Of a DNA stretch of 64,000 nucleotides, positions 1-47,731 are shown piece after piece. Location: the NCBI RefSeq assembly GCF_051903065.1, contig NZ_CP178438.1; one strand, written 5' to 3'. How positions within the stretch are numbered: the stretch's first letter is position 1; each line of letters starts with the position of its first letter. The position numbers and the translations under genes were made by a program. Origin of the DNA: Escherichia coli (GTDB lineage: Bacteria > Pseudomonadota > Gammaproteobacteria > Enterobacterales > Enterobacteriaceae). The notes beneath the pieces are model-generated. The model had not been told where the DNA came from and did not search any database. It saw nothing but the letters and a program-made list of their open reading frames with translations.

Positions 1-982
<982 letters not shown>

Positions 983-1010
983 TTAGTTACTGCAGTAGAG
1001 GATTTTTTAC

Positions 1011-1250
<240 letters not shown>

Positions 1251-1305
1251 GGCCTTTGGCAACGATTATCTTATGAGATTGGGGCAATTACGCGCCCTCG
1301 TCAAA

Positions 1306-4300
1306 TCATTGCGCTTTTTCTTTACGCGGTTGGCGCAACACTTCGTTGATTTGCGGATCGTCCAGCGGACCCGAAATGTGATAGCGCAAAATGGAGACTT
1401 TGCTCCACAGCGGCCCCAGCACTTTACTGGCGGCAAACACTGCCGCGCCAACAATGGGGTTAACCGCAAAAGCCGCAGCCACGCCCACCGTCGCAGAAAT
1501 CTCTGGTGCGACAACCGCTTCCATATTCAGGTCGCGACGTACCAGATTTACCGACCCTTTCATGGCGATATCCGCCTCCAGGCCATCCACCAACGTGTCG
1601 TCGGTGTGCATAACGCCGTCTTTAATCCACGCGGTGCTGCGAATGGAGTCAAAATAGAACCCTTCGCCAAAAGTGTCTCTGAAATCAAAACGCAGCTTAC
1701 GCATCAGGGCATCTACGCTCAATAAGCGCAGCAATTGCCCGGCATGTCCGGTATTGATTTCGGTAATTTCGCCTTTACCCAGTTGAGTATGAATGATGCC
1801 ATTCAACGTCGCCTCATCTGGCTGCCACGGTGCTTTACGCCAGTGTAAATCGTAATCCACATTAAATGACGACTGCCGTATGGGCGTCGTGACACCAAAA
1901 AATTCTGCGGCGGCATCAATTTTCTGCCCGCGCAGTTTTCCTTTCAGCGAGGTACGTTCATTCCCCGGATTATTAACCCATTCACCATCGGCAGTAAGCC
2001 GCGAGAAACCGGTATCAATCAGTCCATTGGTCAGCGTTAATGTATCGCCAGAAATGGTGAGATCACTGTCAATACGACCGAATTTTTGCCCCCAGAACCA
2101 GCACTCTGCGCATCGTATTTGTGCGTCCGGCCAGCCACGGAAGTTAATGCGCTCCGTTGTCGGGAAAGGTGATGACGGTGTTGAATCACCACGAGTTTTC
2201 GCCACGCTCGGGTTGTAATAAAGATATTTGATATTCGCCAGCCACGGCGCGTTATTACGCATCGCTAGCGTGGCGTTGATTTCACGCCCTTGCGCCTCAA
2301 CCTGGGTGCCATTTGCCGTCGGTTGCGAAACAATACTCAGGTTATTCCATTGCTGATTTCCCAGTGACAACATAGGCGTACGTAACGTTATGTGTTGTGG
2401 GAAACTCGCTGCACCACCGACACTCTCCGCCGCGCCTTTCTGGAACAGGGCCAGCCACTCGGCACCATTCATCGGCGGCATATTGAGTTCAACGCCACTT
2501 TGTTCCGGCAACGGCGGGAGCGTTTTACTGTCTGCCGCCCAAATAGCACGGTCGAGCGTCAGCTTTTGACCGAGCAACCAGCGGCTATTGAAATGATTAT
2601 CCGCACCAGCCTGTCCGGTTAATTCAAAGCTGTTGAGATTGCCATCAACCTTAACGTTTACCGCTAGTGGTTCGCCCGCAGGTTTGGCTAACGGTGAAGG
2701 TAAGTGACTGCTCACATTCTTCAGATCGCCGTTCAGCTCTACGTTATAGGTCGCGCCAGCATGATAAGGCAGATCAATGCCCACTTTACCATCCCACGCC
2801 ACGCTGCCACTCAATGCTTCGTTCACCGCTTCAGGCAGAACGCCGGTTTTCGCCGGTTGCCAGTTACCGTTGAGGTTTACCGCTACCTGGTAGGCTTTTG
2901 CCCCTTCTTTGGTGGAAAAATCCACGTTCAACGGCTGATTAAACCAGCTTGCTGTCAGCGGTTCACTTTGCAGATCGCCATTGATAAAGCTGAATTTACC
3001 GCTCAAATTTTTCAGGGTGCTGTCGAGTGGTTTGATAAACAGACTGTTATTACGCAGCGTCACTTCACCTTTCGCGGTTACCAGCTCGCCGTTCAGCGGG
3101 ATATCAAGATGTAAGCGAGCATTCACATCGCCGTCGAGCTGGAGTTCTTGCAGGGTCGCACCCAGAGAATCTTTCAGCGGTGTCTCATCAAAGTAAGGGC
3201 CAACGGCTTTACCCGGACCTTTAATGTCAGCGTCAATCAGCAGTTTTTCTTTTGAGTAGTCAGGGATCACTGCGGTGAGATTACTCGCGCGCACGCCGCC
3301 CAGATTAACGCCATCGGTTTTCATCCATAAACCGTCGTTAATAAAGTCCAGTTCAATATCAAAGTTAGTTAATGCAGGCCAGTCCGGCTGGAAGGCAAAC
3401 TTCGCGTTGCGCAGCGGCACCAGCACTTCAAACTGACCTTCGTTGTGTTTATAGGGGAAGAGTTGCGGATTGCCACCATAAACCAGCGTCGCGTTATCCG
3501 CTTCACCGCCCTGAATCGCGCCACTTAAGTAATCAACCAGGTCTTTACCCATCAAGTTTTCCGGGAAATAGCGCCAGGCTTGTGAACCATCATCGGTACT
3601 GATGCCAGCCAGAATACCCAGCCAGGGTTCATCGTTAGCAGGTTGCAGGTAACGAAAACCGCCGCGCGCATGGACGGCTTTGGCTTTAACGTCAATATTA
3701 CGCCCATCCAGCTGGAAACCTTTGTCATTGTTCAGCCAGCTTATAGTTGCCTGGCCGTCGGCGATTTCCAGTGGCGCACGGAATACCGTTTCGTAAGGCA
3801 TCTTTGCCTGCTTCATCGACGCGGTAAGCAAACCATTTTCAACGCTGCCGGAAAGCGTCCCGGAGAAGTGTTCCGCACCCGGTAATAATTTCCATTGCTT
3901 CCAGGCCAGATCGCTCCACGATGCCTGAAAACGGGTCTTGTCTGCCGCCTGAAGCGGGATATCCAGCGCCAGAGTGTTAATCTTGCCGCTCGGTTGTGTG
4001 GAGCGCCAAACATCACCCAGTGCAGGTGAAAGTTTCGCGGCCAGCGGGCGTATGCCCTCCAGGCCTGCCAGCTCCAGATTACTGGCGCGAATCCGGAGTT
4101 CGTCACTGCGTTTATTGTCTTTGCCGCCAACGTCCTGTTCCGGTATCCAGGCCAGCGTCAATGCTCCGCTCGGCCAGGGTTTGCCGTCCATCGTGATCCG
4201 TGTATCGGGAATAGAGAACTGCCATCCCGGATTTTCACGCGTAATATGCGCGGTCAGATTATCCACCGACAGCGTATGCGTTTCCTTCTCGCCCAACCAG

Positions 4301-20118: not shown

Positions 20119-20415
20119 ATGTTCGAACAACGCGTAAATTCTGACGTACTGACCGTTTCTACCGTTAACTCTCAGGATCAGGTAACCCAAAAACCCCTGC
20201 GTGACTCGGTTAAACAGGCACTGAAGAACTATTTTGCTCAACTGAATGGTCAGGATGTGAATGACCTCTATGAGCTGGTACTGGCTGAAGTAGAACAGCC
20301 CCTGTTGGACATGGTGATGCAATACACCCGTGGTAACCAGACCCGTGCTGCGCTGATGATGGGCATCAACCGTGGTACGCTGCGTAAAAAATTGAAAAAA
20401 TACGGCATGAACTAA
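20119..20415 (+). CDS. fis: Nucleoid-associated protein Fis
   Basis: 98-aa [101 protein letters not shown], recognised as Fis in full. Confidence 0.95.
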
Positions 20416-20440
20416 TTCAGGTTAGCTAAATGCTTGATTA

Positions 20441-20476
20441 AAAAGGCGCTACTCGGCATGGGGAAGCGCCTTTTTT
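20441..20476 (+). terminator. Candidate terminator after fis
   Basis: aaaaggcgct...agcgcctttttt inverted repeat with T-tract. Confidence 0.5.
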
Positions 20477-20500
20477 ATAGGTGTCACAAAGGGAGTGACC

Positions 20501-21196
20501 ATGAGAACAGGATGTGAACCGACCCGGTTTGGTAATGAAGCTAAGACCATTATTCACGGTGATGCCCTTGCCGAACTTAAAAAGCTACCTACTGAAAGCG
20601 TCGATCTGATCTTTGCCGACCCACCGTATAACATCGGTAAAAATTTTGATGGTCTGATCGAAGCCTGGAAAGAAGATCTGTTTATCGACTGGCTGTTAGA
20701 AGTGATTGCAGAGTGCCACCGCGTTCTGAAAAAGCAGGGCAGCATGTACATCATGAACAGTACGGAAAACATGCCCTTTATCGATCTCCAGTGCCGCAAG
20801 CTTTTTACCATCAAAAGTCGCATCGTCTGGTCATATGACAGTTCTGGAGTGCAGGCGAAAAAACACTACGGCTCCATGTACGAACCCATCCTGATGATGG
20901 TGAAAGACGCAAAGAACTACACATTCAACGGTGATGCTATTCTGGTAGAAGCCAAAACCGGATCGCAGCGCGCGTTGATCGATTATCGCAAAAATCCTCC
21001 ACAGCCTTACAATCATCAAAAAGTACCGGGTAACGTCTGGGATTTTCCGCGCGTGCGTTATTTGATGGATGAATATGAGAACCACCCGACGCAAAAACCG
21101 GAAGCCTTACTGAAACGCATTATTCTCGCCTCTTCCAACCCAGGCGATATCGTTCTCGACCCGTTTGCCGGTGATGCTGCCAACTTACTGATTTAG
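20501..21196 (+). pseudogene. yhdJ: DNA adenine methyltransferase YhdJ, 3'-truncated by IS1; reading frame runs 8 codons into the IS1 inverted repeat to a TAG
   Basis: MRTGCEPTRFGNEAKTIIHGDAL...DPPY motif...DPFAG then GDAANLLI* encoded by the IS1 end (GGTGATGCTGCCAACTTACTGATTTAG); native YhdJ is ~294 aa by recall. Confidence 0.8.
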
Positions 21197-21224
21197 TGTA
21201 TGATGGTGTTTTTGAGGTGCTCCA

Positions 21225-21500
21225 GTGGCTTCTGTTTCTATCAGCTGTCCCTCCTGTTCAGCTACTGACGGGGTGGTGCGTAACGGCAAAAGCACCGCCG
21301 GACATCAGCGCTATCTCTGCTCTCACTGCCGTAAAACATGGCAACTGCAGTTCACTTACACCGCTTCTCAACCCGGTACGCACCAGAAAATCATTGATAT
21401 GGCCATGAATGGCGTTGGATGCCGGGCAACAGCCCGCATTATGGGCGTTGGCCTCAACACGATTTTACGTCACTTAAAAAACTCAGGCCGCAGTCGGTAA
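21225..21500 (+). CDS. insA: IS1 InsA (transposition inhibitor / N-terminal part of transposase)
   Basis: 91-aa [40 protein letters not shown] with GTG start. Confidence 0.9.
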
Positions 21501-21922
21501 CCTCGCGCATACAGCCGGGCAGTGACGTCATCGTCTGCGCGGAAATGGACGAACAGTGGGGCTATGTCGGGGCTAAATCGCGCCAGCGCTGGCTGTTTTA
21601 CGCGTATGACAGGCTCCGGAAGACGGTTGTTGCGCACGTATTCGGTGAACGCACTATGGCGACGCTGGGGCGTCTTATGAGCCTGCTGTCACCCTTTGAC
21701 GTGGTGATATGGATGACGGATGGCTGGCCGCTGTATGAATCCCGCCTGAAGGGAAAGCTGCACGTAATCAGCAAGCGATATACGCAGCGAATTGAGCGGC
21801 ATAACCTGAATCTGAGGCAGCACCTGGCACGGCTGGGACGGAAGTCGCTGTCGTTCTCAAAATCGGTGGAGCTGCATGACAAAGTCATCGGGCATTATCT
21901 GAACATAAAACACTATCAATAA
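21419..21922 (+). CDS. insB: IS1 InsB reading frame (expressed as InsAB' transposase by -1 frameshift at the A6C motif near 21476)
   Basis: 167-aa ORF in the -1 frame relative to insA; TTAAAAAACTC slippery motif at 21474-21484. Confidence 0.8.
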
Positions 21923-22015
21923 GTTGGAGTCATTACCCGGTGATAAAATGGCATTCAGCTCGTTAATAAGAGAGTTAACTTATTAAGCGTTAGCGTTTAT
22001 TACTGAGGTAACACC

Positions 22016-22237
22016 ATGAAAAGATTAATTCCTGTGGCATTGCTCACCGCATTGCTGGCGGGCTGTGCTCACGATTCGCCCTGCGTTCCGGTTTATGACG
22101 ATCAGGGGCGTCTGGTTCACACCAATACCTGTATGAAAGGCACAACTCAGGATAACTGGGAAACGGCTGGGGCTATTGCTGGCGGAGCAGCAGCTGTTGC
22201 TGGCCTGACGATGGGGATCATCGCTCTGTCGAAATAA
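22016..22237 (+). CDS. yhdV: Small lipoprotein YhdV
   Basis: 73-aa ORF MKRLIPVALLTALLAGCAHDS: lipobox LAGC plus Gly/Ala-rich C-terminus. Confidence 0.75.
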   Translation: MKRLIPVALLTALLAGCAHDSPCVPVYDDQGRLVHTNTCMKGTTQDNWETAGAIAGGAAAVAGLTMGIIALSK

Positions 22238-22463
22238 CTGAACAGGGCGCGGAGTTTCGCGCTCTGTTTAACGATACAGTATCTTTACATAAGATAAAAT
22301 ATTGCTATATTCTGCTGGCTAATTCTCTGCTGATTTAGCATGTTATATCGCGTTATTTCGCTGCTTTCGAAATAACGCATCAATTTAACTTTCGCACTTC
22401 CCACCAGAAATATACTCACGCTAACAATCATTATTCTGCTTAGTAAAACACGCGTAAATATTT

Positions 22464-22482
22464 TGCGCCAAAATGTGGCGCA
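22464..22482 (+). promoter_or_regulatory. Inverted repeat TGCGCCA-N5-TGGCGCA, candidate enhancer-binding (NtrC-like) site
   Basis: Near-perfect palindrome about 100 bp upstream of the sigma54-type promoter. Confidence 0.4.
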
Positions 22483-22571
22483 TGTTTCATTTTCGCACCA
22501 TTGCGGGGCGCTGTTTTTATTATTTCCTGTCTACACTCAGCTTATTGCGACGCGAAATCGTGCGCAAAACA

Positions 22572-22587
22572 TGGCACTACTTTTGCT
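22572..22587 (+). promoter_or_regulatory. Sigma54 (RpoN) type promoter for yhdWXYZ: TGGCAC-N5-TTGCT
   Basis: GG at 22573-22574 and GC at 22585-22586, the correct 12-nt offset for -24/-12 elements; about 80 nt upstream of yhdW ATG. Confidence 0.6.
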
Positions 22588-22667
22588 TATAAGAGGATGG
22601 CCACAGACAGGTAAAAGACGTTTCCCAAACGTCCTATAACGATAATTTTCGCCTCACAGGAAGCATT

Positions 22668-23693
22668 ATGAAAAAGATGATGATAGCCACACTGGCTGCC
22701 GCCAGCGTGCTGCTTGCCGTTGCAAATCAGGCGCATGCTGGCGCGACGCTTGATGCCGTTCAGAAAAAAGGTTTTGTGCAATGCGGGATCAGTGATGGAT
22801 TACCTGGGTTCTCTTATGCCGATGCTGACGGTAAATTTTCAGGTATTGATGTTGATATTTGTCGTGGTGTTGCCGCTGCTGTATTTGGTGACGACACGAA
22901 AGTGAAATATACCCCGCTCACTGCAAAAGAACGCTTCACCGCTTTACAGTCAGGGGAGGTGGATTTGCTCTCCCGTAATACGACCTGGACTTCATCTCGC
23001 GACGCCGGGATGGGAATGGCATTTACTGGCGTCACTTATTACGACGGCATTGGCTTCCTGACGCACGATAAAGCGGGGCTAAAAAGCGCGAAAGAACTGG
23101 ATGGCGCTACCGTCTGTATTCAGGCGGGTACTGATACCGAACTCAACGTTGCCGACTATTTCAAGGCAAACAATATGAAGTACACACCGGTGACTTTCGA
23201 TCGCTCTGACGAATCAGCGAAGGCACTGGAATCTGGTCGCTGCGATACGCTGGCCTCGGATCAGTCGCAACTGTATGCCCTGCGCATCAAATTAAGCAAC
23301 CCGGCTGAATGGATTGTCTTACCGGAGGTTATCTCTAAAGAACCGCTTGGGCCGGTAGTTCGTCGTGGCGATGATGAATGGTTCTCGATTGTACGCTGGA
23401 CGCTTTTCGCCATGCTAAATGCTGAAGAGATGGGCATCAATTCCCAGAACGTCGATGAAAAAGCGGCTAATCCAGCAACGCCTGATATGGCACATCTGCT
23501 GGGTAAAGAAGGCGATTACGGCAAGGATCTGAAGTTGGATAATAAATGGGCCTATAACATCATCAAACAGGTGGGTAACTACTCGGAAATTTTTGAGCGT
23601 AACGTAGGTTCAGAAAGCCCGCTGAAAATTAAACGTGGGCAAAATAATCTCTGGAATAACGGCGGTATTCAGTACGCACCGCCCGTGCGTTAA
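22668..23693 (+). CDS. yhdW: Polar amino-acid ABC transporter, periplasmic substrate-binding protein
   Basis: 341-aa ORF with signal peptide MKKMMIATLAAASVLLAVANQAHA; first gene of a four-gene ABC operon. Confidence 0.85.
   Translation: MKKMMIATLAAASVLLAVANQAHAGATLDAVQKKGFVQCGISDGLPGFSYADADGKFSGIDVDICRGVAAAVFGDDTKVKYTPLTAKERFTALQSGEVDLLSRNTTWTSSRDAGMGMAFTGVTYYDGIGFLTHDKAGLKSAKELDGATVCIQAGTDTELNVADYFKANNMKYTPVTFDRSDESAKALESGRCDTLASDQSQLYALRIKLSNPAEWIVLPEVISKEPLGPVVRRGDDEWFSIVRWTLFAMLNAEEMGINSQNVDEKAANPATPDMAHLLGKEGDYGKDLKLDNKWAYNIIKQVGNYSEIFERNVGSESPLKIKRGQNNLWNNGGIQYAPPVR

Positions 23694-46251: not shown

Positions 46252-47731
<1,480 letters not shown>

Follow-up and report, generated by a model that had tools for sequence, protein, structure and literature searches.

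Described relatives and the yhdWXYZ locus

The control region of yhdWXYZ can be compared with two described promoters that carry NtrC sites, glnAp2 and glnHp2. At glnAp2, two NtrC dimer sites lie about three helical turns apart before the -24/-12 elements, at -140 and -108. The layout at yhdW is similar, with candidate sites centred at -126 and -96. However, the glnAp2 sites are strong, with 13 and 12 of the 14 consensus bases (TGCACCA-N3-TGGTGCA) and scores of 19-21 bits, while each yhdW site has a moderate 10 of 14 and the scores are 12.5-13 bits. In this respect the yhdW sites are comparable to the site of glnK (14.8 bits) and to the weak sites of glnAp2 (9-10 bits). The glnHp2 operon, like yhdWXYZ, starts with a periplasmic binding protein, and its NtrC sites include CGCACCA and TAGCGCA variants resembling those at yhdW. 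The interval between enhancer and promoter is different in the two systems. A perfect IHF consensus, AATCAAGGAGTTG, is located there at glnHp2, whereas the IHF-like match at yhdW deviates at one position and carries no statistical weight. The yhdW interval contains instead an invariant 13-bp block, named block C here, that has no counterpart at glnHp2.

The analysed stretch of E. coli DNA, 64,000 nucleotides in length, is referred to below as the window. The evidence supports this region as the control region of the yhdWXYZ operon, with the sigma-54 promoter at 22571-22587 as its core. This is a correct rediscovery of an already catalogued sigma-54/NtrC promoter, since yhdWp is listed in RegulonDB and EcoCyc and genome-wide binding data have been published. 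The content added by the present analysis is incremental anatomy: the conservation of the region, two candidate NtrC sites in canonical register, an invariant block and a conserved leader.

The segment 22230-22700 is 100% identical to that of strain 88-3493, and identity is 95-100% in 5,380 of 5,426 complete E. coli genomes. The K-12 yhdWp is the same locus. Its sequence is identical at 22441-22569 and across the -24/-12 elements, and the only difference, CA in the window for GC in K-12 at 22570-71, changes CTGGCAC into ATGGCAC and the sigma-54 score from 17.3 to 16.1 bits. The sigma-54 and NtrC data obtained with K-12 can therefore be applied to the window. There are two larger differences in the surroundings. 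The yhdW gene is intact in the window and a frameshifted pseudogene in K-12, and the window has lost acrS-acrEF, about 0.6 kb upstream, through a deletion linked to IS1. In the RefSeq annotation of strain 88-3493, yhdW is an amino acid ABC transporter substrate-binding protein.

For comparison, a set of 80 loci encoding YhdW orthologues (90-99% identity) in about 19 enterobacterial genera was used; the yhdV-yhdW synteny is retained in 76 of them. Conservation is given as the mean identity to the window base after aligning the 77 orthologous spacers that are distinct in sequence. The features of the region are presented below.

22016-22237: yhdV, upstream of the 430-bp spacer, which is followed by yhdW, yhdX, yhdY and yhdZ
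22350-22378, no strand: far palindrome with arms GCGTTATTTCG (22350-22360) and CGAAATAACGC (22368-22378), 11 of 11 complementary, 7-nt spacer; mean identity 0.30
22464-22480, + strand: candidate NtrC site A (distal), TGCGCCAAAATGTGGCG, centre -126; 12.5 bits, second-best 17-mer in the window
22494-22510, + strand: candidate NtrC site B (proximal), CGCACCATTGCGGGGCG, centre -96; 13.0 bits, best 17-mer in the window
22514-22538, + strand: T-rich tract and block C; block C, CCTGTCTACACTC, is a near-invariant 13-bp block at 22526-22538 (-72 to -60)
22535-22547, + strand: IHF-like match ACTCAGCTTATTG, one mismatch to WATCARNNNNTTR; follows the T-rich tract and overlaps the end of block C
22545-22567, no strand: imperfect repeat, TTGCG...CGCAA and three more pairs with a bulge; mean identity 0.55
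22571-22587, + strand: sigma-54 promoter yhdWp, ATGGCACTACTTTTGCT, with the -24 GG at 22573-74 and the -12 GC at 22585-86; mean identity 0.87 (22572-87)
22598-22667, + strand: predicted yhdW 5'UTR, from a start near 22598, 19 nt after the motif centre by the placement rule of the ChIP-seq paper
Within this leader: invariant CCACAGACAGGT (22601-12), hairpin (22617-33), invariant TATAACGATAA (22635-45) and AGGA (22658-61)
22668-23693, + strand: yhdW, an intact 341-aa ORF and first gene of yhdWXYZ, coding for a periplasmic amino-acid-binding protein
Flanking spacer, taken as background: mean identity 0.39-0.41 in the 77 spacers

The sigma-54 promoter and the proposed NtrC sites

A -24/-12 promoter about 80 nt before yhdW had been proposed in the first-pass annotation, and all its elements are present in the sequence. 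TGGCAC occupies 22572-22577 and TTGCT 22583-22587, the GG and GC dinucleotides are offset by 12 nt, and TTGCT ends 80 nt before the ATG of yhdW (22668). As a bare consensus match the site is only mildly unusual, and suggestive. TGGCAC-N5-TTGCW has a single exact occurrence in the 64-kb window, against a mean of 0.12 in shuffled sequence, and at least one occurrence was found in 10 of 100 shuffles; with one mismatch allowed, 3.2 occurrences are expected by chance. The site becomes convincing, beyond this bare match, because of its position, orientation and conservation.

Scoring with RpoN and NtrC matrices had also been proposed, and a matrix of each kind was built. The sigma-54 matrix was built from the 85 intragenic ChIP-seq motifs of Table 2 in Bonocora 2015, a set that does not include yhdW. 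With this matrix, ATGGCACTACTTTTGCT scores 16.1 bits, ranks second among about 128,000 positions in the window and exceeds 80% of the sites from which the matrix was made. The only higher match, at 46258, is a published sigma-54 site inside rpmJ. In each of the 79 orthologous loci with upstream DNA (about 19 genera), TGGCA[CT]-N5-TTGCT precedes the ATG by 91-115 nt. TGGCA and TTTGCT are invariant in the 77 distinct sequences, and the spacer bases are variable.

The experimental data from K-12 agree with this conservation in backing a sigma-54-dependent promoter. Sigma-54 ChIP-seq identified the site OS34 with the motif CTGGCACTACTTTTGCT and a fold-above-threshold of 29; the start predicted from it is 70 nt upstream of yhdW, and EcoCyc lists the site as a predicted one. 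In vitro, gSELEX with the sigma-54 holoenzyme gave a peak of 40-43% between yhdV and yhdX, and yhdW is among the sigma-54 promoters in RegulonDB. In a reporter study, yhdWp was described as a perfect consensus match, yet yhdWp-gfp was among the weakest of the 12 sigma-54 promoters tested. By the placement rule given above, transcription of yhdW would start near 22598. The entries listed for Ettwiller 2016 and the Kim 2012 supplement contain no mapped yhdW start at the expected coordinates, which is absence of evidence only.

The NtrC matrix was derived from 10 sites at glnAp2, glnHp2, glnK and nac, which were picked by consensus match upstream of the K-12 genes; the same scan recovers the literature positions of the glnAp2 sites, -140 and -108. 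With this matrix, a score of at least 12 bits is reached by just two 17-mers of the 64-kb window, one at 22464 and the other at 22494, and they are sites A and B. Site B had been absent from the first-pass annotation; it is newly noticed and scores better than site A. In both sites the right halves, TGTGGCG and CGGGGCG, are weak. The two sites can also be read as direct repeats that agree at 17 of 27 positions. Together they form an enhancer layout of two sites on the same face of the DNA upstream of the predicted start.

The mean identity in the 77 sequences is 0.77 for site A (22464-82) and 0.80 for site B. The near-invariant bases of site A are T, G and C at 22464-66 and TGTGGC at 22474-79. 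In site B, GCACC (22495-99) varies little or not at all, and G..GC (22506-09) is conserved; in other genera this site has up to 12 of 14 consensus matches, for example TGCACCAACAAGGGGCA, and site A drops to 5-7 bits in many genera. The two best NtrC matches within 200 bp of the promoter are sites A and B, exactly 30 bp apart, in 69 of the 77 sequences. For 24 of these sequences, which come from Escherichia, most Citrobacter and some further genera, the centres are -96/-126; for the other 45 they are -107/-137. This shift corresponds to one helical turn, so the helical face of the two sites is retained. On these grounds we infer that sites A and B are NtrC sites.

The earlier claim of an enhancer-dependent, nitrogen-regulated operon of the NtrC regulon is supported by in vivo binding and by co-expression. 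In nitrogen-starved K-12, ChIP-seq of NtrC (Brown 2014) gave a 16-fold peak, peak 17, which is assigned to yhdWXYZ and covers yhdWp at a resolution of about 100-200 bp. The caution that sequence by itself names no activator was fair, and this peak, the kind of comparison that had been suggested, largely settles the matter for NtrC. In window coordinates, the peak interval given in the paper corresponds to 22585-22665 and lies on the downstream side of sites A and B. We read this offset as probably reflecting limited resolution, because the published glnA peak is similarly displaced from its known sites. Brown 2014 attributes the NtrC-dependent expression of yhdWXYZ to Zimmer 2000. The genes yhdW, yhdX and yhdZ (yhdWXZ) belong to the 'NtrC-3' iModulon together with rutABCD, and a separate study places yhdX/Y/W and the rut genes in one expression gene set. 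During nitrogen-limited co-culture evolution, deletions of 5 bp (frequency 0.92) and 1 bp (0.58) arose in the yhdW pseudogene of K-12.

The yhdV-yhdW spacer is absent from the in vitro NtrC gSELEX list at its 40% cut-off, and the literature searched contains neither a footprint nor a gel shift of NtrC at yhdWp. The lower strength of sites A and B fits the absence from the gSELEX list, as well as the low reporter activity and a later or weaker activation. NtrC may not be the only input to yhdW, since promoter fusions of yhdW are active in LB and induced by lomefloxacin and ZraSR has been reported to affect the operon.

Palindromes, block C and the leader

The first-pass annotation described three palindromes as an enhancer layout, of which only that at 22464-22482 belongs to it; the other two are not conserved. 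The arms TGCGCCA (22464-22470) and TGGCGCA (22476-22482) of this 19-bp palindrome are present as described, 7 of 7 complementary with a 5-nt spacer. However, the spacing does not set the site apart from a canonical NtrC site, as had been thought, and the conserved register is the canonical N3. Site A in this register, TGCGCCA-AAA-TGTGGCG, scores 12.5 bits, and the register shifted by 2 scores 8.0. The symmetry of the arms is lost in other genera (TGCTCTGATTTGTGGCGCA, TGCGCCGAAATGTGGCTTA), for instance with TGCTCTG on the left and TGGCGCA on the right. The N5 register was considered as a non-standard NtrC site and rejected; its arms are not conserved and the N3 register is the best in nearly every genus. 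The perfect N5 palindrome is thus a local coincidence over a conserved, moderate-affinity NtrC site.

The far palindrome also exists, with a spacer of 7 and not 6 nt and a span of 22350-22378 rather than about 22349-22381. K-12 has it too, but E. whittamii (L002) and one divergent E. coli (L003) lack the left arm, and in E. coli E69 (L004) this arm has a rewritten sequence. It is a lineage-specific feature that lies outside the conserved promoter. Neither exact palindrome, the 11-bp or the 19-bp one, is a conserved inverted repeat, and caution is needed in reading them. The imperfect repeat at 22545-22567 is in the sequence as a weak, bulged structure that is not conserved, and a repeat search did not report it at its thresholds. 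Its interior columns carry 0.1-0.5 bits, and it spans a clade-specific indel with 10-11 extra bases in most genera. The segment is a spacer of variable sequence that separates block C from the -24 element.

Block C is nearly invariant. Its columns carry 1.5-1.8 bits each, the mean identity of the region 22526-47 is 0.85 in the 77 spacers, and 67 of the 80 related loci contain one exact copy, and no more, of its 11-mer CTGTCTACACT. Block C keeps a constant distance to site B, and the clade-specific indel of 10-11 bp falls downstream of it. Block C is fixed relative to the NtrC sites and not to the promoter. It was not found elsewhere in the window, nor in the K-12 control regions of glnA, glnH, glnK, nac, rutA and zraP/S.

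The IHF-like match was evaluated with the site criterion WATCAANNNNTTR and a 5' A/T tract. It is a one-mismatch match only, of which about 0.6 are expected by chance in the 430-bp spacer by our estimate, and it is partly conserved (T22543 and TGC at 22546-48). It is only suggestive, as a weak candidate for a site where the DNA bends between enhancer and promoter. The literature searched contains no IHF data for yhdW.

In the leader, about 66 of 70 distinct UTRs, each folded separately, form the hairpin, and the sequence of its stem differs among them. RNAalifold found no structure on 36 leaders, an alignment in which MAFFT misaligns the variable stem. The invariant leader element ACAGACAGG (22603-22611) is a perfect complement of GcvB nt 153-161 in an exact-complement test, and with RNAduplex the long duplex of full-length GcvB with the leader was no better than shuffles. 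The yhdW control region has no family match in Rfam. Block C and the leader element were also considered as a possible co-varying pair, CCTGTCT being the reverse complement of AGACAGG. The two are lost together in the Cedecea group; loci L037, L066, L069 and L072 are exceptions. This is one phylogenetic event with exceptions, and no claim is based on it. A tentative proposal, which we hold possible and on balance rather doubtful, is that the operon has layers of control beyond those described in the papers searched, with block C, unique to this promoter, as the operator of an unassigned regulator or a dedicated architectural site that gates NtrC activation and ACAGACAGG, beside the structurally conserved hairpin, as a pairing site for GcvB, an sRNA of amino-acid transport.

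Proposed mechanism and alternative readings

The reading we prefer is that yhdWXYZ is driven by the sigma-54 promoter and activated by NtrC at sites A and B, to which we assign a probability of about 0.87. Sigma-54 binding, the NtrC ChIP-seq peak and co-regulation with the NtrC regulon have all been published on the near-identical K-12 sequence. In this mechanism, sigma-54 RNA polymerase on 22571-22587 would form a closed complex that is unable to open by itself. Under nitrogen limitation, phosphorylated NtrC (GlnG) would bind sites A (-126) and B (-96), which are separated by three helical turns and face the same side of the helix. The active oligomer of NtrC would then loop out about 70 bp, contact the polymerase and open the promoter at the expense of ATP, with a bend probably needed in the interval of the T-rich tract and block C. 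The outcome would be expression of an amino-acid transporter dependent on a periplasmic binding protein, for scavenging of nitrogen.

Another enhancer-binding protein might use the upstream palindromes and the association of NtrC might be indirect. ZraR is the protein named in this context: a 2026 preprint, citing Rome 2018, places the operon under ZraSR and links it to antibiotic tolerance, and ZraR boxes resemble site A in that they are palindromic over 17 bp and have AAAATG as their core. However, the ZraR boxes between zraP and zraS, CGAGTAAAAATGACTCG and its inverse, in which the half-sites are GAGTA and GACTC, have no counterpart at 22238-22667, and the direct targets in ZraR ChIP-exo are zraP, zraSR and mgtA only, with no yhd target. 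Sites A and B are, moreover, the two best NtrC-type sites in 64 kb, and NtrC is cross-linked at yhdWXYZ in vivo, which makes direct control by ZraR in place of NtrC very improbable. The far palindrome and the imperfect repeat could be further regulator sites of yhdWp. An 11-of-11 inverted repeat is improbable by chance in 430 bp (about 2 in 1000 by our estimate, for spacers of 0-20), and the imperfect repeat is placed where weak 'governor' NtrC sites occur at glnAp2. On the other side are the identity of the far palindrome, which is at or below background, the loss or rewriting of its left arm even within E. coli, and the location of the imperfect repeat in an indel-prone spacer. The NtrC matrix gives at most 3 bits there, and we regard such a role as improbable.

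The -10 pattern of sigma-S-type promoters is CTAYRCT. The near-invariant CTACACT of block C (22531-22537) fits this pattern and could be the -10 element of a second, NtrC-independent sigma-S/sigma-70 promoter with a start near 22544. The activity of the fusions in LB and their induction by lomefloxacin would agree with such a promoter. Its transcription could then be blocked by bound sigma-54 polymerase; the sigma-54 holoenzyme has been proposed as a repressor of overlapping sigma-70 promoters (Shimada 2021). Yet no -35-like element is found at the right distance from CTACACT, where the conserved columns are those of NtrC site B, and the TG is one base off the register of an extended -10. The 13 invariant bases exceed the needs of a -10, the sigma-70 scan did not call CTACACT, and the start-mapping data searched contain no start site for it. 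A second promoter of this kind seems unlikely. The palindrome at 22464-22482 and a hairpin-like segment at 22491-22508 might also be thought to act in RNA, as a terminator or attenuator of an upstream transcript. In a consensus scan both are terminator-like, with stems of 7 pairs followed by T-rich tails, and a sigma-70-like promoter with 10 of 12 consensus bases, TTTACA-16-TATATT at 22284-22311, is a candidate for the upstream start. But complementarity of the arms is lost across genera (TGCTCTG against TGGCGCA) with no compensating changes, and each half of the palindrome keeps its own sequence and not the complementarity, as is characteristic of sites bound by protein. From the putative upstream promoter to site A, conservation is at background level, and no Rfam family matches. 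This reading is extremely unlikely.

As a discovery, the sigma-54/NtrC control of yhdWXYZ described here carries little weight; its modest value is that of a base-level map of the promoter. The gene yhdW is intact in this strain, so the promoter here drives a functional transporter, unlike that of K-12. In recent work YhdWXYZ has been tied to host colonisation and antibiotic tolerance.

The predicted leader of yhdW

The segment between the inferred transcription start and the yhdW initiation codon contains a stem-loop and two nearly invariant sequence elements.

22601-22612: CCACAGACAGGT, nearly invariant element
22617-22633: stem-loop GACGTTT-CCC-AAACGTC
22635-22645: TATAACGATAA, nearly invariant element

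A hairpin of 6-9 bp is found at the same place in about 66 of the 70 distinct orthologous leaders, and its stems vary among the orthologues (GGCGTTT/GAACGCC, GGCACC/GGATGCC and GGCGTG/CACGCC). The structure of this hairpin is conserved, but its sequence is not. There is no T run on the 3' side of the hairpin at 22617-22633, and a comparison of this hairpin with Rfam gave no match.

The section ACAGACAGG of the leader (22603-22611) is perfectly complementary to nucleotides 153-161 of GcvB (CCUGUCUGU). Complementarity to GcvB of 9 nt is reached by 5.5% of shuffled leaders. In the library searched, GcvB and yhdW are named together in only two papers, and, judged by titles, neither is about GcvB targets.

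Variation around the sigma-54 promoter

The window strain has CA at 22570-22571, just 5' of the TGGCAC element; in K-12 and in most relatives this pair is GC or CC. The CA pair reduces the score of the promoter with the sigma-54 matrix from 17.3 to 16.1 bits, and A at 22571 is present in 5 of the 77 distinct orthologous sequences. The best score with this matrix in the window belongs to TTGGCGCTGTTTATGCT at 46258-46274 (+), which is itself among the sites used in building the matrix. It matches the published sigma-54 ChIP-seq site IA26, located within rpmJ and antisense to it.

Five loci (L063, L064, L068, L069 and L076) represent four Cedecea-type yhdV-yhdW spacers, C. neteri and C. davisae included. 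All five retain the sigma-54 promoter and a good NtrC-type site B (at most 13.7 bits); the 13-bp block C is missing, site A is degenerate, and in four of the five the leader element ACAGACAGG is degenerate as well.

The upstream region and the state of yhdW

The following features lie on either side of the promoter region.

21170-21937: IS1A copy, between truncated yhdJ and yhdV (context 20400-22020)
22243-22266: G+C-rich hairpin CAGGGCGCG-GAGTTT-CGCGCTCTG, directly 3' of the yhdV stop codon
22668-23693: yhdW, intact, 341 codons

The IS1A copy occupies the place of yhdU, acrS, acrE and acrF, and the window strain therefore carries a deletion of the AcrEF efflux system and of its repressor. Among 5,426 complete E. 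coli genomes, only 19 have a match that covers 80% or more of the yhdJ-IS1A-yhdV junction. Strain 88-3493, whose promoter is identical to that of the window, retains acrEF.

The hairpin following yhdV is probably the terminator of this gene. Its stem columns are kept across genera in the alignment of orthologous spacers; its T run is short, and it was not called by the consensus terminator scan.

The yhdW copy of the window strain is intact, whereas that of K-12 MG1655 is annotated as a pseudogene. In a published evolution of nitrogen-limited co-cultures, small deletions within the K-12 yhdW pseudogene reached frequencies of 0.58-0.92.
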